Positions 46 through 35,890 of a stretch of DNA of 35,972 nucleotides are shown in pieces. Numbering within the stretch: the stretch's first letter is position 1; each line of letters begins with the position of its first letter. A program made the translations under genes and the position numbers. The notes under the pieces were generated by a model. The model did no database searches. It was not told where the DNA came from and saw nothing but the letters and a program-made list of their open reading frames with translations. Source of the DNA: a virus. The stretch lies in the IMG/VR virus record IMGVR_UViG_3300045988_035186; one strand, 5' to 3'.

Positions 46-743
46 AAATAAAATCTGATGAATTTTATATTATAGAAATCGCAGGTTGTAAGGTCGTTTG
101 TGTCAAGCTCGTTTATAAGAATATAGTTTGCCGCAACGCCGAGCAAATATCCTGATTTTGTAACAATTGTATTTGAACCCACAAGAAAATCAATGGATAC
201 TCTTCTTCCGATTTGAGTGCGTATAAAACCGTTTAGATATTGCACACTTTCGGCTGTTACCTCATACGGATTTTTTATGTCGGTCAAAAGGCTTGCCGTC
301 GACATTGCAGTCTGATTGTTTTGCATATTTTGCATATTCTGTTCGTTTATCATTGCGGGGGTCGGCAATGTTTCTGGATTGTACGGCTGGGTTGAATCTA
401 TGTTCTGAATTTCACGAACCGCCAAATCATTTGCAACTTCGTTATTTTGACTTTCGGCAGGGATTGTCTGTGTAAGTTGATTTATCGACTGCCCCGACGC
501 AGGATTTCTTCTATTCAGTGCCTGTTGATCAGGACTGAAACTTTGATAATTCGGACTTGTGGGGCTAACCAATGTAGCCAGGTCAAGTATGGATGGAATT
601 TCGTAACCGTATTGCTGTATGGTATTTGGAATCTGGTTGTTTATACAATTATAATTATTGCAGGCTGAGGGATTGGTGTCGAGATTATACAGAGTATTTG
701 GGTTGAGCTGCTGCGCCTTTTTATTGTTGATGTAATTTACCAA
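46..743 (-). CDS. gerQ: GerQ-like spore coat protein, 3' partial (runs into the adaptor); not in the ORF track
   Basis: Hand translation from TTG at 743 (RBS GGAGTG 7 nt upstream, overlapping the stop of the upstream gene) is open for 232 codons to the adaptor. The N-terminal half is N/Q/P-rich. The C-terminus ...ESVQYLNGFIRTQIGRRVSIDFLVGSNTIVTKSGYLLGVAANYILINELDTNDLTTCDFYNIKFIRFY follows the pattern of the B. subtilis GerQ C-domain (ESYIENILRLNRGK..IYMTF....G.I...G.DHIIISDP..G...LL...YLDYITF). It forms an operon with a CwlJ-family gene. Confidence 0.55.
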
Positions 744-755
744 AACAAATCACTC

Positions 756-1199
756 CTATGTGTTTTTGTAAGCCTGTGTCGGAGAATAAAAACAATGTTT
801 ACCGATACGATTGTAAATCACGCCGATATTGGTAGGAAAATAGTTTGGACAGGTTGAGGAATAAGGATTAAAATAGAATAAAGAATTGCCGACCGAGCTG
901 TCAGTATTGCCTGCAAGTGCCCAATCTGCAATTTCGTAGTGTATATCTTCAGGTACAATATTATACACATTTTGCGAATTGTACTGACCCCCTACGGAAG
1001 TCTTTAAGCAGGTAAACTGATTTGGCTGTGTAATGATTGCCCGCACATCTCCACCGTTGCTTATCCGTGCAAATTCCCCGTAAGGAACAGTTGACCTGTT
1101 GATAATCACAGAGGCAACCGCACGCATACCTTCAATCCCCTCTCCTCCGCTTTCGCATTTTAACAACCGAGCAAACAATTCTCTTGTGTCAAAAGCCAT
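756..1199 (-). CDS. cwlJ: CwlJ/SleB-family cell wall hydrolase (Hydrolase_2 domain), spore cortex-lytic type
   Basis: ORF 756..1244; the likely start is the ATG at 1199 (RBS AAGGCGGGTGA), giving 147 aa. MAFDTRELFARLLKCESGGEGIEGMRAVASVIINR...ITQPNQF...ADWALAG...SLFYFNP matches the SleB/CwlJ catalytic-domain pattern, and the size matches CwlJ. Confidence 0.75.
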   Translation of the reverse strand: MAFDTRELFARLLKCESGGEGIEGMRAVASVIINRSTVPYGEFARISNGGDVRAIITQPNQFTCLKTSVGGQYNSQNVYNIVPEDIHYEIADWALAGNTDSSVGNSLFYFNPYSSTCPNYFPTNIGVIYNRIGKHCFYSPTQAYKNT

Positions 1200-1281
1200 A
1201 AAATCACCCGCCTTACGAAAAATAATTCGGTATTGCTTATTCATTTCATTTTATGATAAAATAATAATTTAGTTACAGGTA

Positions 1282-1310
1282 TTGACAATTTTTAATTGAG
1301 CCGTTATAAT
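1282..1310 (+). promoter_or_regulatory. Consensus sigma-70/sigA promoter of tRNA-Ser
   Basis: TTGACA (1282..1287), 17-nt spacer, TATAAT (1305..1310), about 24 nt upstream of the tRNA 5' end. Confidence 0.8.
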
Positions 1311-1333
1311 AGTTGAGTACGATAATTTAATAT

Positions 1334-1425
1334 GGAGATGTACCCAAGTGGCTGAAGGGTCTGGCTTCGAACACCAGTAGGTCGGTAACTCCGACGCGAG
1401 AGTTCAAATCTCTCCATCTCCGCCA
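1334..1425 (+). tRNA. tRNA-Ser (anticodon CGA), class II with long variable arm, encoded CCA
   Basis: Acceptor GGAGATG/CATCTCC; 3-bp D stem CCC/GGG with loop AAGTGGCTGAA; anticodon loop TTCGAAC (CGA; 31:39 is a C-A mismatch); variable arm GTCGG-TAACT-CCGAC; T arm GAGAG-TTCAAAT-CTCTC; discriminator G plus CCA. Confidence 0.9.
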
Positions 1426-1427
1426 AA

Positions 1428-1457
1428 AGCACTCGAGCAATCGGGTGCTTATTTTTT
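1428..1457 (+). terminator. Intrinsic terminator after tRNA-Ser
   Basis: AGCACTCG-AGCAAT-CGGGTGCT (8-bp stem with one G-U pair) followed by TATTTTTT. Confidence 0.8.
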
Positions 1458-1564
1458 GTGATAAACACTGAAAAATCGGCTAATTTGCTATGTTTTTCAA
1501 TCACTCAGCCTTTGCTTTTTGAGTGAATTTCGGTATCAAACAATATCAGCTAAAATCAATAAAG

Positions 1565-1588
1565 TTACACAGTAAATTACACAGTAAA
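1565..1588. repeat. Perfect 12-bp tandem direct repeat TTACACAGTAAA x2 at the prophage/host border
   Basis: 1565..1576 and 1577..1588 are identical. The repeat sits between the holin terminator and the tRNA. It is a candidate recombinase arm-type site. Confidence 0.6.
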
Positions 1589-1634: not shown

Positions 1635-2090
1635 TTATTCTTTTTTATCGGTATCATAATCAGTCTTACTGTCAACCGAGTCTTTCAATCTGTGTACAAT
1701 TTTAACTAAAAACGGTGGAATCGGTGTTCCAAGCTCACTCAGATTTTCGAGAATACTTATAAGCTCATTGATAATAAGCCATACAGCCACAATCAATCCA
1801 AAGCAGTAGCTGCTGTAGTCAATTCCCACGCTTGTGAGTCCTGCGCAGATAAGATAATCAACAACACCGCCCACGCATACGAGAACGAGGTAGCTAACCT
1901 TCTTCAGTATTCCGATTAAACCTGTTTTACTTTTTAATTCACCGTTTCTGTACGCAGATGTCAATCCTGTAATATAATCAATAAGCATTACAGCGATGAG
2001 CACGAGAATTGGGATAAGTAAGATATTAAAATACGATATAAGTGCACCGATAGCTACTGAAACAGTAGCCTGAATAATATTGTCTTTCAT
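1635..2090 (-). CDS. Holin (phage_holin_4_1 / toxin-secretion-phage-lysis holin family)
   Basis: 151 aa with several TM helices and ...LIDYITG...GELKSKTG..GILKK...LENL.ELG.PIP motifs, then a charged C-tail. RBS GGAGGAA. Confidence 0.8.
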   Translation of the reverse strand: MKDNIIQATVSVAIGALISYFNILLIPILVLIAVMLIDYITGLTSAYRNGELKSKTGLIGILKKVSYLVLVCVGGVVDYLICAGLTSVGIDYSSYCFGLIVAVWLIINELISILENLSELGTPIPPFLVKIVHRLKDSVDSKTDYDTDKKE

Positions 2091-2093
2091 TTT

Positions 2094-2351
2094 TCATTCC
2101 TCCAATTTCTTACATTTATTTTCAAACTTTTTATAAGCGTCAAAATAAAGCTCGTTTTTATCACCGTTATAGGTAATTTCGTAGTACATACCATCCGGTA
2201 GAGAAGTACTTATCAAAGCTTTATAGTTTTGTAATGTTTTACAAGACCACACGACAAACACTTCAAAATCAGGAATTTCTTCCGATTTATCAAGATGAGC
2301 TAAAACATATTCTGAAACTTCAATTCTTGCCAAATCTAAAAAATTATTCAT
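2094..2351 (-). CDS. Small soluble protein between endolysin and holin (resembles the DUF6275-type phage family)
   Basis: 85 aa, no TM segment. VVWSCKTLQNYKALISTSLPDGMYYEITYNGDKNELYFDAYKK recalls a family seen in Firmicute prophage lysis regions. RBS GGAGGG. Confidence 0.4.
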   Translation of the reverse strand: MNNFLDLARIEVSEYVLAHLDKSEEIPDFEVFVVWSCKTLQNYKALISTSLPDGMYYEITYNGDKNELYFDAYKKFENKCKKLEE

Positions 2352-2364
2352 AGCTAACCCTCCA

Positions 2365-3387
2365 TTATGTCAAAGTAATCTGCAGACCGTCAATCTTTGT
2401 GCCGATAACGCCTGCGTAGCCGTCCTGCTCGCTGTTTTTTTCGGTGTTGTGCTGCCAATCCCAAAAGCCTGCACCCTGCTTACGCACTCTGTATGTAGCC
2501 TTGAAGTCGCTCACGCCGCTAAACTCGACCTGTACGGCATCAATGACTTTGCCTTTAATGCCTGCATAACCATTGTCGCTATCGCTGATGTCATAGCCGT
2601 TTACCCACGGCAGCCAGTCACCATTAAGCAAGTGCACACGATAGCGAGTTTTACCTTTTGATACTTTAAGAGCAATAGCTGAAATAGCTTGTTTCTTTCG
2701 TCCTGCTACATTTGACAAGCCCTTGACCTCGCTGTACCACTTGCCGTCTGCAAAGACTCTATATGTCAGCGTTGGCTTTTTAACCTTTGTTTCAGATTTG
2801 CCGAAGATGTTATCGTTGTAAATTACATTAGTATCAATATTTCCGCCATAGCCGTTGATTTTGCCTGTCGAGCTGTTCTGCCAAATATCACAGTTTAATT
2901 CATTTACGGAGTTATATTGTGCAAGCCAAATACTGTATTTTCTCTTCAATTCATCATAATCAAGACAGTTGTTAAACCAATTCAGATTAGCGTATATACC
3001 TGCTCTGTAGTTACTTTTCTTGATAGTTTCGCAGAAGCGTTCTGCAATCGCTGTAAGTTTTGTTTTGCCGAGTTTAACCATTGAATAATCTTCCAAATCA
3101 TAATAAATTGGCATATCGAAATATTTATTTTCAACACACTCAAGGCAGGCTTTTGCTTCTTTTTCTGCATCATCGACACTATCAGCATAACTGTACCAAT
3201 AGGCACCGATTTTAAGTCCAGCCTCTTTAGCATTACGGTAATGACTTTCAAACATTGTGTCTTTTTGCGATGTTTCTCTGCCATAGCCAGCTCTGATTAT
3301 GACCGCTTTTATGCCGTCATTTTTCATTTTGTTGAAGTCGATATTTTGCTGAAATTCCGAAATATCAACGCAAGTAATTTTTGACAT
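2365..3387 (-). CDS. Endolysin: N-terminal GH25 muramidase plus three C-terminal ChW-like (clostridial hydrophobic-W) wall-binding repeats
   Basis: N-terminus VDISEFQQNIDFNKMKNDGIKAVIIRAGYG...YWYSYA...DLE is GH25-like. C-terminal repeats: YRVFADGKWYSEV..., YRVHLLNGDWLPWVNGYD...GYAGIKGKVIDAVQVEF, YRVRKQGAGFWDWQHN...GYAGVIGTKIDGLQITL. Confidence 0.8.
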   Translation of the reverse strand: MSKITCVDISEFQQNIDFNKMKNDGIKAVIIRAGYGRETSQKDTMFESHYRNAKEAGLKIGAYWYSYADSVDDAEKEAKACLECVENKYFDMPIYYDLEDYSMVKLGKTKLTAIAERFCETIKKSNYRAGIYANLNWFNNCLDYDELKRKYSIWLAQYNSVNELNCDIWQNSSTGKINGYGGNIDTNVIYNDNIFGKSETKVKKPTLTYRVFADGKWYSEVKGLSNVAGRKKQAISAIALKVSKGKTRYRVHLLNGDWLPWVNGYDISDSDNGYAGIKGKVIDAVQVEFSGVSDFKATYRVRKQGAGFWDWQHNTEKNSEQDGYAGVIGTKIDGLQITLT

Positions 3388-4411: not shown

Positions 4412-5704
4412 TTATTCCCCCTTTGCCTCTATGCTGTCTGTCAGAGCTTTAATTCCGCTCAGTGTACGGCTCAACACATAGGCTTTTACTTTCTCTTTTT
4501 TAGGTTGTCCTGCGTTATCATAGACAAAATCACCGTTTGAATCAGTAACATAGCTTTCAATTTCTAATCCGTCACCAATCTGCACCCAAGGCCTGCCGTC
4601 AAGAGTAGCTGCAAGCGGTGTGTACGAACAGTTATAAAAGCGCTCGCCTGTTTTTCCACTTATAAGATTTTGCACATTGTGAACTAAAGCACCGCCTGTG
4701 CCGTCATCTTTTTGCCAACAAACTACATTTTTTGTAAAATCATATGTTACAACATCCTCACCCCACTGTGATTCTGCAACGGTAGTTTTAGCTTTTCTGT
4801 CGGTGAACGAGTAACCGTACGAAAAATTAAAACTGTTATAACCTGTACAATCGTATTCCTCTCCGTAAAGATTTTCGTAAAAATCATACGTTTCTGTATT
4901 TTTGCCAAGTTCAATATATCTGAATACACCTTTACCTTTATTCGGCACAACAGCACCGAATAAACCGAGCATTTCACAACAATTTTTTAGTATCTCGCCG
5001 TATGTAATCGTGTCTGAATTTTCAAGCCACGCCTGATTATATGTCGGAAAATCACGCACGGTAAGCCCTGACTGTTGGTTTATTACTTCGTCGAGAATTT
5101 CTTTGTTATCCTCGACCTGAATCATATGCTTTCCGTTGTAGTTAAGGCATAGCACAACCAATTCGCCGATTTTATAGCCGTTTGGATAAGTTTTCCATAA
5201 ATTAAACAGCTTATTTGTTGCGTCAATATCATATAACATAGAGAGTGCGTCATAAGCGACAATGTGTCGCTTATTGCGGTTATTCTTGTCAAGCTTGGCA
5301 CTGTCAATAATACCGCTAAACAAATAATATTCCTTTGCAGCTACGGTTTCTCCCGGCAAAAGTGATGTACCTAAAAACAGCTTTGCAGATGGCAGCAGCT
5401 TTTCTCCGCTCGGAAAACGCTGCGTTAATTTTACACTTATCCATTTACCGACAAGGTCTGTTGTAAAAATTCTGTCGTCTGAATTTACAAGGTCAATATC
5501 AAATTCAGAAGCAATACAACCGCCGAATTTTAATTTACTTTCGTCACAAATTGACTGTGTAAGGCTCATACTTTCACTCGCTATATTTTTCTCTGTTATA
5601 TCCGGATATTCACCGTCGGGAAATGAGATTGTCAGTATATTTTCAATCAGATTTTCAATAGTCTGCTTTTTGTGCAGACTTGAAACTTCAAGCAAATTAA
5701 CCAC
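4412..5704 (-). CDS. Tail tip / Tal-like baseplate protein (assigned by position)
   Basis: 430 aa, directly downstream of the Dit-position gene. The true start may be the TTG at 5695 (RBS AGAGGTG). Confidence 0.4.
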   Translation of the reverse strand: MVNLLEVSSLHKKQTIENLIENILTISFPDGEYPDITEKNIASESMSLTQSICDESKLKFGGCIASEFDIDLVNSDDRIFTTDLVGKWISVKLTQRFPSGEKLLPSAKLFLGTSLLPGETVAAKEYYLFSGIIDSAKLDKNNRNKRHIVAYDALSMLYDIDATNKLFNLWKTYPNGYKIGELVVLCLNYNGKHMIQVEDNKEILDEVINQQSGLTVRDFPTYNQAWLENSDTITYGEILKNCCEMLGLFGAVVPNKGKGVFRYIELGKNTETYDFYENLYGEEYDCTGYNSFNFSYGYSFTDRKAKTTVAESQWGEDVVTYDFTKNVVCWQKDDGTGGALVHNVQNLISGKTGERFYNCSYTPLAATLDGRPWVQIGDGLEIESYVTDSNGDFVYDNAGQPKKEKVKAYVLSRTLSGIKALTDSIEAKGE

Positions 5705-5707
5705 CTC

Positions 5708-6124
5708 TTAGTATTCAATGAATGTAAATGTTAAGGCGGAATATTTTATATTATCCGCAGTAATTATCTTTGGTGTGTATGTAATATCGGGCATATATGC
5801 GGTCATTGTACGATAAGCAAGGAGTTCATCGTCCCAATATTCAACATTGAGCTTGCGTTGCTGAGAATTTGACATAGCACCGTTTAAAACACTGCGAATA
5901 GTTCTCATTTCAGCAAGGGTAAGACCGTCCTTGGTATTGAATGTAATCTTAGTTTTGTTGTTCGGTGATGTTACTCGCCTTAAAAGGTTGTTGCTGTCAC
6001 GATAAGCTTTAATCTCCGTACGCTGTAAAGGTGTGGCTTGATAACTTTCTTTAGCTATGAGCTTATGTGGAAACTGCAAGCCGTTTTTCGGGAATTTAAT
6101 TAAATAGCCTTTAAATTCACTCAA
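5708..6124 (-). CDS. Distal tail protein-position gene (short, Dit-like by synteny only)
   Basis: 138 aa, TTG start with RBS AAGGAGGG, immediately after the tape measure. Confidence 0.35.
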   Translation of the reverse strand: MSEFKGYLIKFPKNGLQFPHKLIAKESYQATPLQRTEIKAYRDSNNLLRRVTSPNNKTKITFNTKDGLTLAEMRTIRSVLNGAMSNSQQRKLNVEYWDDELLAYRTMTAYMPDITYTPKIITADNIKYSALTFTFIEY

Positions 6125-6136
6125 TCTTATCCCTCC

Positions 6137-9100
6137 TTACGCAAAAGCGGACCTGCCTGTGCGTTTCTTGATTTTGTTGTTCTCATCAGCAACAGCCTCA
6201 AAAAGCACTCTGCCGTCAGGCATAGTCAAGGTAATGTGAATATCTCCGCTGTTGCCTGTTCCGCCGTACTCCGCAAGCACCTCAGCCATAGCCTGTTTCA
6301 TCGCTGATATTGGCGAAACAACTTCCGCTTCACGCTTATTATCGCCGAGAACTGCAAGAAATTCACCGTAATTTGCAGGTACATATGTGCCTGTAGCAAG
6401 TTTGGGGATGTGCACCTCATCAAGCTGCCCGGCGTGCCATTCCTGTCCGAATAGCTTGCCGATAGCGTTGGCAACCGTATCCACACCGCTTAGCATTCCG
6501 TTTAACGCTGAAATAAAGCCATTGATAAAATTTTCAAGTCCAGTTAAAACATTGTTAAGAGGCTTTTTGATGATGTTATACAAGGGTTCAAAAACATTTG
6601 AAAAGATTGTTTTTATAGGTTCTAAAGCCTTTCTTATATTCTTTAACATCATGGTAATGACACTCTGTACCTTTATACTTGTATCAGATAAACCATTGAC
6701 AAGACCTAAAACTGTATATTGTCCACGCTTATACATTTCTTTTGACGGAGAATGTATATCCATTGCACTGTCATATTCTCTTAATATAGTGTTTGCAAGT
6801 CCGTTACTGTTTTTTACAAGGGCTTCTTGATATTCCTGTGTACCCTCAACAAGTCCCATTACAGTGTTTTTTCCTGAGTCTTTGGCGGCTTCTTCAAGTT
6901 TGTTTAATGTTTTCCATTGCGAGTTTTGTACATCTTCAAGACTGATCATTCCAGCTTTGTATGTCATTAAAACTGCTACAGCATCGGAATAATCTCCTTT
7001 GAGAACTTTTTGAACATCAGACATATCATCTTGTGTCATTATTAGCTTGTTAAGCCCAGCTGTACATTCATTGTATGAATTTTTTAGTTTCATTAAAGAA
7101 TTTATTTCTTCGTATCCACCGTTGCCTAACACGGTTTCAATATTATTTTTTGCGTCAATTCTATCATCTGCTTTTAAAGAATTATTTTTATATCTCTCGT
7201 ACTGGTTAATAAGCCAACTGTAAGTTTTTCCACTCTGCTTTAATTTGTTTTCAATTTGAGTCTGCTTAGAATTAAGTTCTGAAAGCAATTCGCTTTGATT
7301 TTTTCTTGCTGAAATTATAGATTTAGAATTTTCGGTTTGTAATTCTGATAAAGCCGAACTGTTAGCTAATAATTGATATTGATCAATCGTATTATTGATT
7401 TCATCTTGTATCTCAGATAAATCACCTTTCAGCTCAACCTTACCCCCATCGCTTATTGTGACATAATTATCCCATGTATCGCTAAAGCCGCTAACATTAT
7501 CTTTAAAATATGTAACGATAGTTTGCAATTCTGACTGTTCTTCGGGAGTAAGTTCAGCTTTGCTGATTAAGGTTTCAAGTTTATCCTGATATTCATCAAT
7601 CAATGTATTATCAGCATAGAGCTGGTCAACCTTATCTAATGTATTTTTGATTGTGTCTGTAATTTTCTGCGTTGTATTTTCAAGTCTGTTTTTCACATCG
7701 TCTATTTCATCACAAAACTTTTTAGCCTCAGAATTGCTCCATTTTAGTTCATTGTAAATTTGAACCGCTGAAACAATACCCGTTATTGCGCTTGCTATAA
7801 TAAGCAGAGGGTTAGCCGAAATAACCGAACTGATGTTTTTAACTGCTGATGTGACTTCACTTATACCACTCGCAATAGTCTTACCTGTCTTGAATGCGAT
7901 AACTGCTGCGGCAACAGCGCCAATACCCGTTGCTACTGCTTTTAACATATCCGGACTTATCTTATTAACTATATCTGAAATTGTCTCAAGAGCCTCAGAA
8001 AACAAATTTAACAAATCCGGTACAGCTTTCTCAATCGTCCATTTTGCAAGCGGCAATAAAACATTCTTGTACGCTTGTTTTAGCTTATCTCCGCAAGCCT
8101 TGAGCAGATTTCTGAATCCCTCGGTCAAGCGTTCAACCGCCTGTGCAACGGGGTTAATGTCAAGGTCCTCAAGCCATTCGAGGCGGTCAGCTGACATTTC
8201 ATCAAGCAGCCCTGTTATATCTTCGACAATGCCTAATATGCTCTCCCAAATTTTTCTGCCTGTATCGTTTTTCTCCCAAGCGTCTTTAATTTTGGTTCTG
8301 AGAGTTTCAGTATAGTTATTGCAGTTGCGGATAATCTCAAGTATATTGCTCCAAATTTTCTCGCCCTTACCGTCATTCCACACATGCCTGAATGTATCGC
8401 CTACCGTATCCAAAAGCTCAACAAGGCTGTTCCACTTGTCGATAAATGACTGTACAACGCTGTCGCCTAACCCTGCTTTGTCCCAAGCATTTGTAAAAGC
8501 CTCTGCGATATCACCTACTGTGCTTACGAAAGTGTTAATTAAAGCGTTGATATTTCCAAGCACCTTTTCGCCTGTACCGTTATTCCACACTTTTGCCCAC
8601 GAATTTTTAATCGTTACGCAGGCGGTTTTTACCTTGTCAAGCGAATTTACAATATTGTCAATAGTCTTTCTTGTGTGCCTGTCGCTTTCAAGCATAGCTT
8701 GCTCAAGTGCATTTTGCATTGATTTGATTTCAGAGCTTGGCGCTTGCGTACTTGTGTCTGAGCTGTTGTCCGAGGTGTCGCTCATCACATTGAGTTCATC
8801 AAAGCCTGCAAGGTTTTTCTGTAAGTCCTCAGCTGCCTCCGATGTTTTTTCAATCTCAGATGTAGAACTGTCCGCTTGACTTGCAAGGTCTGACATATCG
8901 CTTACAGCTGAGCTTGTCGCATTGCTTGTTGCAGTAGAATAGCCGAACACCTGAGCTGTAAAGTCTTTAAACTTCTGTGCCGCAACGCTAAGTCTTGAAA
9001 TAAACTGATTAATGCAATTAAGCAGCGGAGTAAAAGCATTTATCAAGCCTTGACCGATTGTAGCCTTGATACTGTCAAACTGCAGCTGTAAAATTCTCGT

Positions 9101-10135
9101 TTGATTTGCCCAACTGTTTTGCGTTCGGGTAAAGTCACCTGTTGCATTATTGAGTTGGTCAAGCACAAAGTTATACCTAAGCGTTACCTTTTCAGCCTCG
9201 GTCATTTCCGATGTTGTCTTGCTCCAGCCGTTTGCCATTGCGTAATTGTCAAGTGCGTTCTGCGTCATTACAATGCCAAGGTCTTTGAGCGTTTCGGTTT
9301 CACCGCTGAAAACAGATTTCAGCTTTGTGTACGCCTCGTCTTGCGTTATGTTGTAAAATGACGCCACATCACCCGTAAGAGCCGTTAAGGCTGTTGACAT
9401 ATTAAATGCTTGCTGTTCCGTAAAGCCGAAAGCCTCTGCCATAGAGCCGAATGTACCGACATATTTTTTAGCCATAGTTTCGGATAAGCCGTAAGATTTT
9501 TGTGCTGACTTTGCCCAATCGTCCACACTTGCAGACATATGGCTGAAAGTAACATCAACTACATTCTGCACTTCTGCAAGGTCTGAGCCAAGCTCTATGC
9601 TTTCCTTGCTAAAACTTACAACCGCCGCCGTACCGAAAGCGGTAAGCAGCGTTCTGCCGATCATTTTCGCCTTGCTTTGCAGTCTGTCAACAGCCGTTCT
9701 GACTGTTTGTAATGATTGCTTAGCCTTTTTTGCACTCATAGAAACTGATTTCTTAACGCTTTCGCAAGTATCATTTGTGCTTTTGCCGACTGCCTCTGTG
9801 TTGCGATTAGCTGTGCTCTCAACCTTATCAACAACATTTTCGGCAGATTGCTCGACTGATTCTGATACCTTTTGCGCTGCCTGTGCGGTTTGCTTTGCCG
9901 AGTTTTGAGCCTGTTCAGCTTTTCCCTGTGTGGCAGTAATTTCACGCTTTGCTGAGTTTTCTGCCGCCTGAGACGATTTATCAGCCTGCCCTTTAGCAGT
10001 TTGTGCTGTCTGCCTTGCACCCGACTGTGCTTTCTTTTGAGCCGCCTCAATAGCTTTATTGATTCTTGCAATATCGCTGTTAAGACCGCTTGTGTCGATT
10101 TTTGTATTAAAAATCAAACTACCGTCAACCGCCAT
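6137..10135 (-). CDS. Tail tape measure protein
   Basis: 1332 aa. A/Q/K-rich coiled-coil N-terminus, TM-like segments, periodic W..G.G.K(I/V)W repeats (DNA about 8240..8610), and position after the chaperones. Confidence 0.9.
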   Translation of the reverse strand: MAVDGSLIFNTKIDTSGLNSDIARINKAIEAAQKKAQSGARQTAQTAKGQADKSSQAAENSAKREITATQGKAEQAQNSAKQTAQAAQKVSESVEQSAENVVDKVESTANRNTEAVGKSTNDTCESVKKSVSMSAKKAKQSLQTVRTAVDRLQSKAKMIGRTLLTAFGTAAVVSFSKESIELGSDLAEVQNVVDVTFSHMSASVDDWAKSAQKSYGLSETMAKKYVGTFGSMAEAFGFTEQQAFNMSTALTALTGDVASFYNITQDEAYTKLKSVFSGETETLKDLGIVMTQNALDNYAMANGWSKTTSEMTEAEKVTLRYNFVLDQLNNATGDFTRTQNSWANQTRILQLQFDSIKATIGQGLINAFTPLLNCINQFISRLSVAAQKFKDFTAQVFGYSTATSNATSSAVSDMSDLASQADSSTSEIEKTSEAAEDLQKNLAGFDELNVMSDTSDNSSDTSTQAPSSEIKSMQNALEQAMLESDRHTRKTIDNIVNSLDKVKTACVTIKNSWAKVWNNGTGEKVLGNINALINTFVSTVGDIAEAFTNAWDKAGLGDSVVQSFIDKWNSLVELLDTVGDTFRHVWNDGKGEKIWSNILEIIRNCNNYTETLRTKIKDAWEKNDTGRKIWESILGIVEDITGLLDEMSADRLEWLEDLDINPVAQAVERLTEGFRNLLKACGDKLKQAYKNVLLPLAKWTIEKAVPDLLNLFSEALETISDIVNKISPDMLKAVATGIGAVAAAVIAFKTGKTIASGISEVTSAVKNISSVISANPLLIIASAITGIVSAVQIYNELKWSNSEAKKFCDEIDDVKNRLENTTQKITDTIKNTLDKVDQLYADNTLIDEYQDKLETLISKAELTPEEQSELQTIVTYFKDNVSGFSDTWDNYVTISDGGKVELKGDLSEIQDEINNTIDQYQLLANSSALSELQTENSKSIISARKNQSELLSELNSKQTQIENKLKQSGKTYSWLINQYERYKNNSLKADDRIDAKNNIETVLGNGGYEEINSLMKLKNSYNECTAGLNKLIMTQDDMSDVQKVLKGDYSDAVAVLMTYKAGMISLEDVQNSQWKTLNKLEEAAKDSGKNTVMGLVEGTQEYQEALVKNSNGLANTILREYDSAMDIHSPSKEMYKRGQYTVLGLVNGLSDTSIKVQSVITMMLKNIRKALEPIKTIFSNVFEPLYNIIKKPLNNVLTGLENFINGFISALNGMLSGVDTVANAIGKLFGQEWHAGQLDEVHIPKLATGTYVPANYGEFLAVLGDNKREAEVVSPISAMKQAMAEVLAEYGGTGNSGDIHITLTMPDGRVLFEAVADENNKIKKRTGRSAFA

Positions 10136-10193
10136 GTAATCACACTCCTTTCTGTAAAATTAAGGGCGCAGCAAAATGCGGCCCCTTGTGGTA

Positions 10194-10224
10194 TAAAAAC
10201 AGCGCACACCCAAAGATGTACGCT
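10194..10224 (-). terminator. Intrinsic terminator downstream of the moron, upstream of the tape measure gene
   Basis: Minus strand AGCGTACA-TCTTTGGG-TGTGCGCT followed by GTTTTTATAC. Confidence 0.65.
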
Positions 10225-10243
10225 GTAAAATTTGAAAAATTTT

Positions 10244-10269
10244 AGCCACCCCGTTTGGAGTGGCTTTTT
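10244..10269 (+). terminator. Terminator-like hairpin whose T-tract is on the plus strand (possibly bidirectional)
   Basis: AGCCACCCC-GTTT-GGAGTGGCT followed by TTTTT on the plus strand. On the minus strand it is followed by AAAATTTTT. Confidence 0.5.
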
Positions 10270-10310
10270 AATTGAAGATAGATTAAAGGATTGCGACTGT
10301 CAGCTTATTT

Positions 10311-10766
10311 TTATGGTCGCCAATGACAGTTAGGACATTCTGCAATGTCATTATAGGAATTTATACAATGACATTGTGGGCATTCCCACTTATCATTACT
10401 AACAAACTTTGCTTGTCGGCTGTCGGTATGTTCCAAATGACAGTTAGAGCATTCGGTAGCCTCTGCTTTGTTCATACAATGACATTTAGGACATTCCCAA
10501 TCTGTTGTTTTGGCGATTACTGAGCTTTTACCTGCACCCAACTCTTCAAGATAAGCAAGTATTTTAGCAATACCGCCAAAAATCAGGCATAATAATACTG
10601 TTGATACCCAGCATACAAGCATTAAAGTAAAATTAAAACTGCGGGTTACGGTATCAGTTAGAAAATTTGTATGTACGCTTTGGAAAACTGCGCCTAAAGC
10701 TATTCCTCCGACTGCACCAAGTATCAATAGTACGACTGTTATACCTTTGTAAAATTTGCTGTTCAT
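10311..10766 (-). CDS. Moron: membrane protein with 2 TM helices and two RanBP2-type zinc fingers
   Basis: 151 aa. TM1 is GITVVLLILGAVGGIALGAVF and TM2 is FTLMLVCWVSTVLLCLIFGGIAKIL. WECPKCHCMNKAEATECSNCH fits W-x-C-x2-C-x3-N-x6-C-x2-C, and WECPQCHCINSYNDIAECPNCH fits the same pattern with x7. The gene has its own consensus promoter and RBS AAAGGAG. Confidence 0.7.
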   Translation of the reverse strand: MNSKFYKGITVVLLILGAVGGIALGAVFQSVHTNFLTDTVTRSFNFTLMLVCWVSTVLLCLIFGGIAKILAYLEELGAGKSSVIAKTTDWECPKCHCMNKAEATECSNCHLEHTDSRQAKFVSNDKWECPQCHCINSYNDIAECPNCHWRP

Positions 10767-10779
10767 AAAATCACTCCTT

Positions 10780-10832
10780 TGTTACATAATATAACAAAGT
10801 TTGTGTATTGTCAACAATAATTTTATGTAACA
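10780..10832. repeat. 10-bp perfect inverted repeat bracketing the moron promoter
   Basis: TGTTACATAA (10780..10789) and TTATGTAACA (10823..10832). An inner palindrome ACAAACTTTGT lies in the spacer. Confidence 0.7.
10786..10814 (-). promoter_or_regulatory. Consensus sigma-70 promoter of the moron
   Basis: Minus strand TTGACA (10814..10809), 17 nt, TATTAT (10791..10786). The leader to the start codon at 10766 is very short. Confidence 0.7.
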
Positions 10833-10833
10833 C

Positions 10834-11391
10834 CTATACAAGATTGTTTATAAAATCCTCTTCGGCGTCAAGTTCTGCTTGCTGTTCGGGAGAGAGCTTT
10901 TCCTTGATGTCAACAAGCTCTTTGTGCTCATTGTAAAAATCACGCTCCCATTTTTCAAGCTTTTTGCCCTTAGCACGCTTGCCTCTTATGTTCATTACCT
11001 GCGAGAGCAAGCCGTCGCCAACCTCGCTGAAATAGCCGAGAAAAGTCCACCAATGCACATAGCTTGCAATCCTTGTTTCAAAGCCTGCAACCTTGTTAAG
11101 TGCTGGGAAAATAATGCTTTCGTCATAGCTCCAATCAATAATTTTGACTGGAGCTTTTTTCGATTTCGGCACATCCCCGCCGTCAAGAAACCACAATGCC
11201 TTTTTGAGTGCCTCCTCAACATTCTTTGGAACTTCCTTGTATAAGCAATTCAAGCATACTGCCGCTTTTTCGCAGTAGGTTAGCTCTTTGTCGGCATAAG
11301 CCTCGAAAATCAAGAGAGCAATACGAAAATCGGAATTAATCTCGTACTGCTCTCCGTCTATTTCAAGGCTTGTAGGAAGTAATCCAATCAC
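10834..11391 (-). CDS. Phage Gp15-family protein (tail assembly chaperone-position gene 2)
   Basis: 185 aa. LPTSLEIDGEQYEINSDFRIALLIFEAY is typical of the Phage_Gp15 family. The GTG start overlaps the upstream stop (GTGA). Confidence 0.6.
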   Translation of the reverse strand: MIGLLPTSLEIDGEQYEINSDFRIALLIFEAYADKELTYCEKAAVCLNCLYKEVPKNVEEALKKALWFLDGGDVPKSKKAPVKIIDWSYDESIIFPALNKVAGFETRIASYVHWWTFLGYFSEVGDGLLSQVMNIRGKRAKGKKLEKWERDFYNEHKELVDIKEKLSPEQQAELDAEEDFINNLV

Positions 11392-11813
11392 TTTGCAAGC
11401 CTCTTTGCTTGATTGAGGTACTTCTCAATATGTTTGCTCTGCTGAGCGTGTGCGTTTTCAATGTCACTTACGATGACCGGCACAACGCAGTTGAGAAAGT
11501 TCTCAAAAATCATACTGCCATCATCACAGATTGAAAGGCAATTTACATCGCCAAACGCACCCTGACTTACACCTGCACCGAGAACATAGTCTATTTCTTT
11601 GCGGATTTCCTTGTCAACATCAAGAAAAATTTCAAAGGTTACATCCTCGGGTTTCATATTCTTGTACTTCTGCACAAGCGCTTCGGTGCGTTCTGTCAGC
11701 TTGTTAATTCGCTCAACGAGTGAGTAGTCTGTGGTGTTAATCTTGATTACCGTGCTTTCATCATTGTTGATTGCATATGTTTTTAAGGGTGTTTTAAAAT
11801 TCAAACTCTGCAT
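11388..11813 (-). CDS. Tail assembly chaperone-position protein
   Basis: 141 aa, acidic, directly downstream of the major tail protein. Confidence 0.5.
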   Translation of the reverse strand: MQSLNFKTPLKTYAINNDESTVIKINTTDYSLVERINKLTERTEALVQKYKNMKPEDVTFEIFLDVDKEIRKEIDYVLGAGVSQGAFGDVNCLSICDDGSMIFENFLNCVVPVIVSDIENAHAQQSKHIEKYLNQAKRLAK

Positions 11814-11824
11814 AGAATCACTCC

Positions 11825-12331
11825 TTATACAGTTTCGGTAAATGTCGGTACCTTATCTGAGATTGTCGCTGTACCCTGCTTTCTGTTGCCGTCAAATGTA
11901 ACATTAAACGGAATGTTTACACCGCCCTGCGCACCGCCGTATGACTGCGGCTTAACAATGCAGTCCTCAATCCAAGCATCATAAGGGCCTGTTTTCTTGT
12001 CAATGAGCACTTCAAGAATTTTGGTTTTGCAGTCATCACCGGTAAGGCGGTTCATTGCAATATCCTTGATTTTCGGGTAAATGCTGTCACCTGTATTTGC
12101 GTAATATGTACCTGCGTCAAGGGTAGGCTCGTAGCCATTGTCATTTACAGAGGTTTCATCAAGAATGTTCTTTACTGTGCTTGTGTCCGGACTAAGCTCG
12201 ACCGACATATCGTCAATGTCCTTGCCGATAAGATACCACTTTGGACTTTCGCCTGTGCCAAAGCTCGCGTCAATAAAATGTAAAAGGTAACTTCTTTTGA
12301 GTTTACCGATATCGGGTGTTGATACTGCCAT
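11825..12331 (-). CDS. Major tail protein
   Basis: 168 aa. The position, size and beta-rich sequence (WYLIGKDIDDMSVELSPDT...) resemble Firmicute siphovirus major tail proteins. Confidence 0.7.
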   Translation of the reverse strand: MAVSTPDIGKLKRSYLLHFIDASFGTGESPKWYLIGKDIDDMSVELSPDTSTVKNILDETSVNDNGYEPTLDAGTYYANTGDSIYPKIKDIAMNRLTGDDCKTKILEVLIDKKTGPYDAWIEDCIVKPQSYGGAQGGVNIPFNVTFDGNRKQGTATISDKVPTFTETV

Positions 12332-15941: not shown

Positions 15942-16087
15942 TAGTCTTCTTCCAAGTAGTCAAATTCACTCGACATTGAGCGTTCTTTTTCTTCGTCTGT
16001 TAATGTAGAAAGAAATTCTTCCATACATTTTATTTGCAATTCAATAGGTCCGTCGATAATTGCGTTTCTTGATTTATTTTCTTCCAC
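15941..16087 (-). CDS. Candidate acidic mini-ORF after the MuF C-terminal module (48 codons from GTG 16087, or 27 from ATG 16024)
   Basis: VEENKSRNAIIDGPIELQIKCMEEFLSTLTDEEKERSMSSEFDYLEED. It overlaps the MuF stop. Coding status is uncertain. Confidence 0.3.
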   Translation of the reverse strand: MEENKSRNAIIDGPIELQIKCMEEFLSTLTDEEKERSMSSEFDYLEED

Positions 16088-17912
16088 TCCAAATCACCCC
16101 AGCTTTTGATTTATTTAGCAAAGTTTTAACAAATCTATCTTTTTCCTCATCGGTTTCCTTAACCACTATCTTCTTATACAATCTATTACACTCAAGAGCA
16201 AATCTATTGTTGTCAAAATCATCGGTTTTAGTTAAATATTCAACTGTGCCGTTGTTTTTTACAATAGTAATTGTTCTAACATTTTTATTTGCAAATACAT
16301 CCAAATCGTTCATAGAATAACTACTGTTTCTCGGATGATTATGTAAAATAGTTAAATTTTTTCCTTTTGTCTCCAAGTATGTGCCAAAGTCAATTTTTTC
16401 ATCAGAACCTGTAAATGGTTTATAGTCAACCAATCCGTCGCGAAAAACAAATGCAACTTCTTTATTGTCATTTTGTTCTTTTGAAAATTTCAAAAGTTCC
16501 TTATGTTGTTTTTGAATTTCAACCCTTTGTTCTTCAGAATATCCGGCAATATCAACTTTCGGCACTCGCTCGATAGCTTTATCTGTTATTGGCGTAATAG
16601 GCTTTTTATTTTCCTCTTTTATTATACCACTACCGCCCGATTTTTCAACACCGAATTTACCTTTAAAGGTATGATTTTCTGTGTTTTTAATCGGCAAAGA
16701 AGTAGTTTTTATTCCGCCTATCGGTGAACTGGCTTTTTTAGGCTTTGTAATACCCTCAACGTTGCTGCCGCCAACCGTTACCCTGTCCCATTGTTGAGAA
16801 AGTCCGACGCTTTTTGAGAAGTTCACATATTCATCGGAAGTTTTTACATATCTTGCACGAGCGTTAATTATTGCTTGCTCGTCAGCCCCGCCTTCTTCAA
16901 GCAATTTTATTTTCTGCCTTTGTGCCCGCATTGTGGTTTCAAGTCTGCGCTGTCTTTGGGTTGCCTCGTACTTTGTGTATGTCTTGCCGTTGTATTCTAC
17001 AGGCTTGTTTTCCTCTGCGTTCATCTTGTCTAGCTGTTCATCTGTGTATGTGCGTGGAGTTATGCCGGGAGTGAAAGGCGAATATGAGTGATAGCAGTTT
17101 GCGCCGCAAAGTCCTGTTACCGTGCCAAGTCCGCACACGCTCTCGAGTTCTTCCTTACTGTACACTCTGCCTTGCCACACCTGATGGCTCGGCCTTGCTC
17201 CACTGTGCCACGATACCTCAAAGTAATTTGTGCCGAGTTTTTCGGCGTTTTCCTCATTGATTTTGCCCACAACCTGATTCAGTCCTGTTGACACCGCACG
17301 CCTTGCCGCAACGGTAACTCTATTGCTGTGACCGCTTGCATAGTCAACCGTACGCAATCCGCTGTTTGTCATTTCGGTTACGGTTTTTTCGAGTACGGTA
17401 TTATAATCACTCGCACCGCTTGCAATTTCCGTGACGGCTTTATCAAGTGTTTCTTGATAATAGTCTGCAACGGGAGTAAAGCCCAAACTGCCGTCAGGCT
17501 GTCGCTTTGCAAAGCCCATTGACTGTGTAATGTTTTTACATTCGTTTTGTGTCTGCTCTTGTACGGCCCTCACAAATTGCTGTAGTGGCTCGTTTTCTGA
17601 ATATGGTATAAACTCCTTGCCTTGTTCAATAAAAGCACTCTCCGCCTCGTTATATCCGCTTTCCGTTATATTTGTAAAGATGTTTTCAACTTCTTTATCG
17701 CTAAGGTTAAGTGTCCTTGCGACAATGTCTTTGATTCGCTTTTTGCTTGTACCTAAATCGTATAATCTGCTCATTTTATAGCCTGTTGACGGTATAATCT
17801 CCGCAGCTTCAAGTAACATTCTTACTATTTCCGTCATTATGCTCATTTGCAGGCTGTCAAAAATTTGCTCGAGTGCAATCGGGATTGCCTCTGTAACTTC
17901 GGGAGTAAACAT
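16074..17912 (-). CDS. Minor head protein, MuF/SPP1 gp7 family, with a C-terminal JAB/MPN (RadC-like) pattern module
   Basis: 612 aa. MuF signature EVSWHSGARPSHQVWQGRVYS...GLCGANCYHSY (aa about 230-280), a G/S/K-rich linker, then NKEVAFVF...LTILHNHPRNSSYSMNDLDVF (aa 483-540). Confidence 0.8.
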   Translation of the reverse strand: MFTPEVTEAIPIALEQIFDSLQMSIMTEIVRMLLEAAEIIPSTGYKMSRLYDLGTSKKRIKDIVARTLNLSDKEVENIFTNITESGYNEAESAFIEQGKEFIPYSENEPLQQFVRAVQEQTQNECKNITQSMGFAKRQPDGSLGFTPVADYYQETLDKAVTEIASGASDYNTVLEKTVTEMTNSGLRTVDYASGHSNRVTVAARRAVSTGLNQVVGKINEENAEKLGTNYFEVSWHSGARPSHQVWQGRVYSKEELESVCGLGTVTGLCGANCYHSYSPFTPGITPRTYTDEQLDKMNAEENKPVEYNGKTYTKYEATQRQRRLETTMRAQRQKIKLLEEGGADEQAIINARARYVKTSDEYVNFSKSVGLSQQWDRVTVGGSNVEGITKPKKASSPIGGIKTTSLPIKNTENHTFKGKFGVEKSGGSGIIKEENKKPITPITDKAIERVPKVDIAGYSEEQRVEIQKQHKELLKFSKEQNDNKEVAFVFRDGLVDYKPFTGSDEKIDFGTYLETKGKNLTILHNHPRNSSYSMNDLDVFANKNVRTITIVKNNGTVEYLTKTDDFDNNRFALECNRLYKKIVVKETDEEKDRFVKTLLNKSKAGVIWSGRK

Positions 17913-35885: not shown

Positions 35886-35890
35886 GTCAA
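35862..35890 (-). promoter_or_regulatory. Perfect consensus sigma-70 promoter of the XRE gene
   Basis: Minus strand TTGACA (35890..35885), 17 nt, TATAAT (35867..35862). Confidence 0.8.

Follow-up and report, generated by a model that had tools for sequence, protein, structure and literature searches.

Small membrane proteins that block DNA entry and are made independently of the late genes are encoded by several phages, among them Imm of T4, SieA of P22 and the lactococcal Sie2009. The lipoprotein Ltp of the Streptococcus thermophilus phage TP-J34 is reportedly expressed from the prophage, where it is directed against the tape measure protein (TMP) and interferes with TMP-dependent entry. The first moron, gene 15 of HK97, lies between the tail chaperone and TMP genes and encodes an inner-membrane exclusion protein (PMC3594210). 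SNIPE is a membrane-anchored DUF4041-GIY-YIG nuclease, and such an anchored cytoplasmic domain can meet the TMP during injection (PMC13190303). In this study we analysed a stretch of viral DNA of 35,972 nucleotides (nt), the IMG/VR record IMGVR_UViG_3300045988_035186, which is called the window below. A moron cassette at positions 10,194 to 10,832 of the window occupies the chaperone-to-TMP junction of the tail operon and encodes a protein of 151 amino acids (aa) with two transmembrane (TM) helices and two zinc ribbons. This moron is positionally equivalent to HK97 gene 15. Judging from the comparison of related loci, the junction is very probably a recombination-prone hot spot for cargo genes. 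The best overall explanation is that the moron cassette held in this slot acts as a superinfection-exclusion factor, which we consider about equally likely to be right or wrong.

The cargo slot between the Gp15 family gene and the tape measure gene

The moron open reading frame (ORF; 10311..10766, minus strand) was present as the earlier note had claimed, and lies in a 698-nt insert. Its left neighbour is a Phage_Gp15 family gene (10834..11391, minus; PF06854, E 1.3e-25; phrog_706), the second of the genes in tail-chaperone position, and its right neighbour is the gene of the 1332-aa TMP (6137..10135, minus). Eighty viral contigs with relatives of the Gp15 family gene, the best 80 of 410 matches, were fetched, and together with locus L001 and the window 80 junctions were resolved. 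The gap between the two genes ranged from 23-30 nt up to 2564 nt. The tight junctions of 23-30 nt (L062, L063 and L069) were empty, with neither promoter nor hairpins, and the junctions of two deposited phages, Dulem virus 35 and Blautia phage Montmirail, measured 9-14 nt, in agreement with the earlier observation that this junction is normally tight. The first position of the slot was filled by the two-TM zinc-ribbon (2TM) family in 27 of the 80 junctions, including a 106-aa variant with one finger, by N-terminally TM-anchored proteins (C02) in 17 loci, by lipoproteins (C03) in 16, by a 243-aa Cys-rich protein (C05) in 12, by a RelB-like gene in three and by an XRE pair in two. Most of the alternative first-slot cargo families are envelope proteins. 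An optional second block was composed of ORF6N or Bro/KilAC antirepressor-like genes.

Even among relatives whose Gp15 family proteins are at least 96% identical the moron gene varied in presence, with other cargo or nothing in its place, and a role as a conserved component of the tail module was rejected on this presence/absence census. A 33-codon 5' stump of a 2TM gene, of the type of the 106-aa variant, was found at about 6626..6730 behind the common promoter in the lipoprotein loci L014, L015, L020, L026, L032 and L037, which is direct evidence of cargo replacement. In the window's lineage, an identical promoter and ribosome-binding site (RBS) stand ahead of three cargos (C00, C03 and C05).

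Other genes were also seen at the same junction. HicA/HicB lie there on the opposite strand in L010-L012 (about 8436..9050 in L010), and the RelB-like gene, of 90 aa, lies at about 6635 in L055-L057. The ORF6N protein of the second block (e.g. L001 9305..9877) matches the PADLOC candidate PDC-S05 (E 8.7e-11). Locus L111 (about 5460..6030) has two tandem copies of the cassette promoter, the second of which precedes a different 134-aa zinc-ribbon gene (MENQNTVQTQETTKFCKHCGG...). The N-terminal half of the L111 2TM gene is nearly identical to that of the window (synonymous divergence, dS, 0.018) and its C-terminal half is diverged (dS 1.4), a contrast which points to intragenic recombination.

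Homologues 35-45% identical to the moron protein were found in other backbones at the same chaperone-to-TMP junction, with promoters of the form TTGAC(A/T)-17-TATTAT/TAATAT and the same two hairpins, and the distant members P0013 and P0038 again lie at this junction. In a backbone with unrelated chaperones and TMP, an ORF 85-93% identical to that of the moron stands behind a different promoter. In L121-L128 (about 4900..5650) a unit of promoter, ORF and the hairpins T1 and T2, with 66-67% aa identity, is located after the TMP gene and before the next tail gene, and the distant member P0036 is not part of a tail module, its neighbours being an integrase and a surface protein. Because the promoter-ORF-terminator unit is found at another tail junction and in unrelated backbones, it is, as far as these comparisons go, a mobile cassette for which the chaperone-to-TMP junction is the preferred, not the sole, site. 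The description of the moron as self-contained was thereby upheld by its variable presence, by the persistence of promoter-like hexamers and hairpins and by the occurrence of the unit at another junction and in other backbones. The GC content shows a modest gap, being 38.2% in the moron ORF and 36.3% in the cassette as against 43.4% in the Gp15 family gene and 40.9% in both the TMP gene and the window.

The cassette is bordered by a predicted promoter and by terminator-like hairpins. The promoter is composed of a -35 hexamer TTGACA (10809..10814, minus) and a -10 hexamer TATTAT (10786..10791, minus) with a 17-nt spacer; it lies on the correct strand inside the 67-nt gap between the Gp15 family gene and the moron ORF and matches the consensus at 11 of 12 positions. 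Promoter matches of at least 11/12 number four in the 36-kb window, against 1.4 expected. In several lineages every occupied junction has the -35 hexamer at this position, empty junctions lack it, and the -10 hexamer is unchanged across the loci of the window's lineage that carry the cargos C00, C03 and C05. The RBS AAAGGAG (10774..10780, minus), read from the sequence and kept in relatives, is separated from the moron ATG by 7 nt. Two perfect 12/12 TTGACA-17-TATAAT promoters were also noticed in the window, one at 1282 (plus) in the host flank, pointing at the prophage end, and one at 35890 (minus), which lies upstream of the early genes and close to the right end.

Downstream of the ORF, the two hairpin terminators described before were confirmed at 10265..10244 and 10226..10199, and a third one was added. 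T1 (GCCACTCC-loop-GGGGTGGC; 10244..10265, minus) has a 9-bp stem and recurs after first-slot cargo in distant lineages. T2 (10199..10226, minus) has a 12-bp stem, a UUUG tetraloop and a U-run. The terminator-like hairpin T3 (about 10162..10187, minus), followed by a U-rich tract, lies just before the TMP RBS and comes after T2 in the window's lineage. T1 and T2, with compensatory changes, stand behind every cargo type in every lineage with an occupied junction; T2 is located shortly upstream of the TMP start whatever the cargo, and empty junctions lack it. For T2 one compensatory pair was found within the window's lineage and more across lineages, and for T3 the pair at columns 47/60 is CG in six sequences and UA in six. 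On this pattern, the promoter and the terminator hairpins are the conserved borders of the slot. No Rfam family matched within 9900..11100. A predicted long-range pairing of the 3' flank of the moron ORF (10285..10301) with the TMP RBS (10136..10152), which would enclose T1-T3, was treated as chance, since neither L117 nor the loci with other cargos have this flank.

The order of the genes, all on the minus strand, is major tail gene (11825..12331), a 141-aa gene in chaperone position (11388..11813), the Gp15 family gene, the insert, the TMP gene and a DUF6711 distal tail gene. The TMP gene was recognised by its size, its position and the DUF6711 gene next to it, and its homologues in Blautia phage Montmirail are annotated as tape measure. 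A lysis module at 1635..3387 comprises a PF05105 holin (1635..2090) and a GH25 endolysin. The relatives lie in contigs of 164-261 kb, and their hosts are Ruminococcus and Clostridiales metagenome-assembled genomes. Positions 46..1579 of the window are 99.7% identical to phage-free chromosomal DNA in scaffolds of 254-439 kb, where the genes next to the match are those of thiamine biosynthesis and of ribosomal S6/S18. This identifies the window as an integrated prophage with a host flank on its left, to which the SleB-like Hydrolase_2 gene (756..1244) belongs, and the prophage context that had been assumed holds for the window and its relatives alike. The prophage/host junction is near 1579/1580, just past the holin gene, and the integrase end lies outside the window.

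The membrane protein and its zinc ribbons

Every feature that the earlier note had read from the sequence, i.e., the ORF, the promoter, the inverted repeat, the terminators, the TM helices and the Cys4 fingers, was recovered in our analysis. The ratio of nonsynonymous to synonymous substitutions (dN/dS) against relatives is 0.07-0.12 and low in both halves of the gene, and by this measure the ORF is a real gene under purifying selection. Hydropathy placed hydrophobic segments at about aa 9-27 and 46-70. The AlphaFold model (pLDDT, the predicted local distance difference test, 69.6) agreed with a helix at aa 3-27, a beta-hairpin at aa 30-43 and a helix at aa 46-75, followed by a disordered linker and two small zinc-knuckle modules. 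TM helix 1 was assigned to about aa 8-28 (10683..10745, minus) and TM helix 2 to about aa 46-70 (10557..10631, minus). TM1 carries a glycine zipper G17xxxG21xxxG25, in which G17 is invariant and G25 nearly invariant in alignment A1, and G17 is nearly invariant in A2. TM2 together with the juxtamembrane motif YLEELGAG (aa 72-79) is the most conserved part of the protein, the invariant columns being L59-I66 and Y72-G79 in an alignment based on the ten relatives found by a word-indexed search. Two TM segments were predicted in 152 of 160 family members, with a K/R-rich N-terminus and an acidic inter-helix loop. By the positive-inside rule it is therefore plausible that both ends of the protein are cytoplasmic and that the ribbons stand in a reducing compartment.

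A profile search of 1.84 billion representatives (E up to 0.001) returned at least 150 family clusters at 50% identity, which have the 2-TM module in common and differ in their ribbons, these being one to three in number and variable in type. The moron protein has no PHROG and no PADLOC-DB 2.0 family at E up to 1, its TM domain belongs to no named Pfam family, and no holin family of Pfam or PHROGs matches it. No relative of the cassette or the protein was found in DNA and protein searches of 50,697 GenBank phage records. A Foldseek comparison of the whole model with the PDB yielded local matches to fingers and none that was significant, and a scan of viral contigs with the broad alignment A2, in which there is no conserved stretch, was unproductive. 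The 2TM zinc-ribbon proteins are a new, uncharacterised family of a known kind, that of the morons.

Two copies of W-x-C-x2-C-x3-N-x6/7-C-x2-C had been described as textbook RanBP2/NZF fingers. Both copies are present, zinc ribbon 1 at aa 90-109 (10440..10499, minus) with the x6 spacing and zinc ribbon 2 at aa 127-147 (10326..10388, minus; WECPxCH..N.Y....EC.NCHW) with the x7 spacing; the textbook label suits at most the first. Only finger 1 fits the RanBP2 PROSITE pattern W-x-C-x(2,4)-C-x3-N-x6-C-x2-C, a pattern found in 39 of the 160 family members, with the x7 form occurring in 20 of the 160. In the hidden Markov model search with zf-RanBP (PF00641), the whole protein scored 20.2 bits and finger 1 by itself 24.4 bits, both below the gathering cut-off of 27, and finger 2 gave no PF00641 match; 12 of 46 relatives match this family at E < 0.01. 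The best PDB sequence matches of finger 1 are all Nup153 or RanBP2 fingers (E 1.2e-4). Local superposition on the Nup153, TAB2 and TRABID fingers gave 0.6-0.9 A over 24-26 residues, all with Foldseek E > 0.6. On these grounds, finger 1 can fairly be called a RanBP2-like zinc ribbon, but not an established member of the family.

Finger 1 is an accessory duplicate, and sequence comparison indicates that it is dispensable in relatives, because an in-frame deletion of 14 aa between the WEC and TEC repeats takes out its first CxxC knuckle in P0003, P0004 and the identical 137-aa protein of L001 (8001..8414), in all of which the finger is half-deleted. In P0006-8 and P0010 it is absent. The C-terminal finger 2 is the conserved one, with W127, E128, C129, P130, C132, C144, N146, C147, H148 and W149 invariant, and other members of the family carry CPxCG...CGCG ribbons instead. 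Missing from the fingers are the T-F dipeptide found in NZFs that bind ubiquitin and the aromatic and Arg residues known from ZRANB2 fingers that bind RNA, and residues for contact with ubiquitin, Ran or RNA are not evident in them.

The earlier note had also suggested a link to the ubiquitin system through a JAB-pattern domain of the same phage. The sole JAB-like motif, HNHPRNSSYSMND, is probably the pattern that was meant. It is a JAMM-like HxH...S..D motif at aa 524-536 of the 612-aa minor capsid protein 2 (16074..17912, minus), within about 250 unannotated C-terminal residues. The link was rejected, since the motif is short and has no Pfam match or other profile support, and the fingers presumably lack the ubiquitin-contact residues of NZFs.

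Proposed function and its alternatives

In the mechanism that we propose, a SigA-type promoter would express the moron constitutively from the repressed prophage, and T1-T3 would insulate the silent late genes downstream. The product would sit in the cytoplasmic membrane with both ends inside, a beta-hairpin loop of about 16-20 aa outside and one or two Cys4 zinc ribbons exposed in the cytoplasm. TM2 and YLEELGAG probably make the functional contact, which would be self-association or binding to a membrane partner from host or phage, and the variable ribbons probably serve as a protein-binding module. The moron product may then interfere with TMP-mediated genome entry of incoming siphophages, as HK97 gp15 does from the same gene position. 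We put entry-blocking exclusion in particular at somewhat less than even odds. The proposal draws on the analogy of position with HK97 gene 15, the envelope nature of the alternative cargo and the precedent of a membrane-tethered protein that contacts the TMP. A broader version is rather doubtful. It holds that the 2TM zinc-ribbon proteins are a widespread entry-blocking or defence family of gut Clostridia prophages, in which the glycine-zipper module keeps the RanBP2-like ribbons at the cytoplasmic face, where they intercept the TMP, or a partner that arrives with it, at injection, and that they sit in an integron-like slot whose borders act as homology arms for swapping envelope-acting cargo.

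Several points weigh against an exclusion function. The moron protein shows no sequence or profile similarity to known exclusion or defence proteins in Pfam, PHROGs, PADLOC or the GenBank phages. Many Gram-positive exclusion proteins, such as Ltp and Sie2009, act outside the membrane, and here the soluble bulk is predicted to lie in the cytoplasm. With about 8 K/R versus 10 D/E counted from the sequence, the ribbon region is slightly acidic, and DNA binding by it is therefore unlikely. T1-T3 are oriented as the late operon and stand between the moron ORF and the essential TMP gene, so they precede an essential late gene and would require a late read-through that is unexplained, no antiterminator having been identified. 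The cargo frequencies, which come from the best 80 of 410 matches, are biased to close relatives. Finally, the glycine zipper of TM1 would equally suit a pore-forming effector.

The last point leads to the first of the alternatives, an abortive-infection or membrane-permeabilising effector, in which the ribbons sense a phage component and the 2-TM glycine-zipper pore kills or arrests the lysogen. The GxxxGxxxG zipper with its invariant G17 and nearly invariant G25 fits such a pore, TM2 is far more conserved than a passive anchor requires, the ribbons vary in number and type across the wider family as would be expected of a sensor, and HicAB and RelB-like genes occur in the same slot of some relatives. 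However, no PADLOC family was matched, a constitutive single-gene pore of 151 aa would require tight autoinhibition, and the low dN/dS in both halves shows no diversifying selection in the supposed sensor among close relatives. Taken together, we regard this effector as unlikely.

A lysogenic-conversion factor without a role in defence has, in our estimate, a similarly small chance. Such a factor would modulate a host transporter, sensor kinase or protease via TM2 and YLEELGAG, with the ribbons as a cytoplasmic adaptor. The invariance of TM2 and the juxtamembrane motif and the location of P0036 beside an integrase and a surface protein, away from the tail module, would suit it, and the functions of morons are diverse (PMC3594210). 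On the other hand, in at least six backbones the family shows a strong association with the chaperone-to-TMP junction, and most of the alternative first-slot cargo consists of envelope proteins of the kind typical for exclusion factors.

Another alternative bears on regulation: the earlier note had proposed that the repeat which flanks the promoter may be a regulatory operator or an RNA hairpin in read-through late transcripts, understood here as an operator bound by a repressor or a hairpin that silences translation of the moron. We consider this improbable. The 10-bp inverted repeat is indeed perfect in the window, with its distal arm TGTTACATAA (10823..10832, minus) directly after the stop codon of the Gp15 family gene and its right arm TTATGTAACA at 10780..10789. 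Its length is only mildly unusual, because perfect repeats of at least 10 bp turned up in 1.6% of dinucleotide shuffles of the 67-nt gap (16 of 1000) and in 6% of those of the 765-nt region (12 of 200). Of 44 relatives with the same promoter, only 5 had a perfect distal arm, 22 had a single mismatch in it and 17 had two to five. The search pattern of this 44-locus census fixed the right arm, which was also invariant in an unfiltered upstream listing, so the changes in the left arm are uncompensated. The distal repeat was rejected as an operator on this ground, and from its variation the promoter-flanking repeat is probably not one; other lineages have different repeats or no equivalent around the promoter. 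A proximal palindrome, CTTTGTTA-TATTATG-TAACAAAG (10777..10799, minus), is centred on the -10 box, contains the right arm at 10780..10789 and overlaps the start of the RBS. It is retained in most relatives, being perfect in 48, with one mismatch in 16 and with two mismatches in 8 of the 72 locus records with a related promoter, which include some contigs twice and leave out two chance matches elsewhere. This conservation proves nothing, because the palindrome overlaps bases needed for the -10 box and the RBS, and the window has no further copies of the motif such as would be expected of a set of operators. In favour of a hairpin, the RNA of the 86-nt promoter region folds better than shuffles (z -3.2; 2 of 200 shuffles as good), the -10 box lying in a 10-bp hairpin and the start codon under an outer helix. 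This fold covering the start codon would form only in read-through transcripts, and it has no covariation support.

Least likely of all, and very improbable in our view, is a lytic-cycle accessory gene (a holin- or antiholin-like timing factor, or a helper of the TMP or of tail assembly) expressed mainly by read-through of the late operon, because for all that it shares the strand of the late operon, keeps its position beside the TMP gene and resembles, as a small 2-TM protein with cytoplasmic tails, the class II holins, the gene is dispensable among near-identical relatives with Gp15 family proteins at least 96% identical and the phage has a dedicated holin and endolysin of its own, for which reason a holin identity was rejected, while no holin family match was found and an own promoter with three terminators would be senseless for a co-transcribed late gene.

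The proposed superinfection-exclusion factor provides a concrete and testable candidate for a new exclusion or defence family in the abundant and poorly studied prophages of gut Clostridia. The slot itself is a fixed place for cargo inside an essential tail operon, the same place as that of the first moron described, in unrelated Gram-positive phages, and envelope-acting genes are exchanged in it behind a common promoter and ahead of common terminators. With conserved terminators within the operon, a further question is how late transcription gets past them. Should the proposed function be borne out, more exclusion factors could be sought in the slot, among them the lipoproteins, the TM-anchored proteins and the 243-aa Cys-rich protein.

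Comparison with known systems

At the level of the ribbons, finger 1 resembles the RanBP2/NZF fingers (PF00641; Nup153, RanBP2, ZRANB2 and TAB2) in its pattern, its PDB matches and its local superposition. The differences are the sub-threshold score of finger 1, the x7 spacing of finger 2 with no PF00641 match, and the contact motifs, which are presumably missing. Like T4 Imm, P22 SieA and Sie2009, the moron product is a small phage-encoded protein of the cytoplasmic membrane, here proposed to act at genome entry. Unlike it, those proteins have unrelated sequences, are encoded in early or lysogeny regions and contain no Cys4 ribbons. Ltp is likewise an envelope protein of a Gram-positive siphophage, and the lipoproteins C03 occupy the slot of the moron in relatives, but Ltp is extracellular whereas the soluble part of the moron protein is predicted to be cytoplasmic, and neither the moron nor C03 matches an Ltp family. 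In SNIPE a cytoplasmic module is kept by its TM anchor at the place where phage DNA is delivered by the TMP (PMC13190303), as is proposed here. A large nuclease with a single membrane pass, SNIPE is encoded on a defence island, whereas the moron protein lacks an enzymatic domain and has a ribbon region that is not basic. The YebO-like gp15 of HK97 differs in that no homology is detectable (no YebO match in Pfam at E up to 1 and no PHROG for the moron protein) and in that it carries no zinc ribbons; the host of the window belongs to the Gram-positive Clostridia, and the function of the moron is proposed here by analogy. The moron and HK97 gene 15 are alike in that both are found in prophages at exactly the same position and encode a small membrane protein with a promoter and terminator of its own (PMC3594210).

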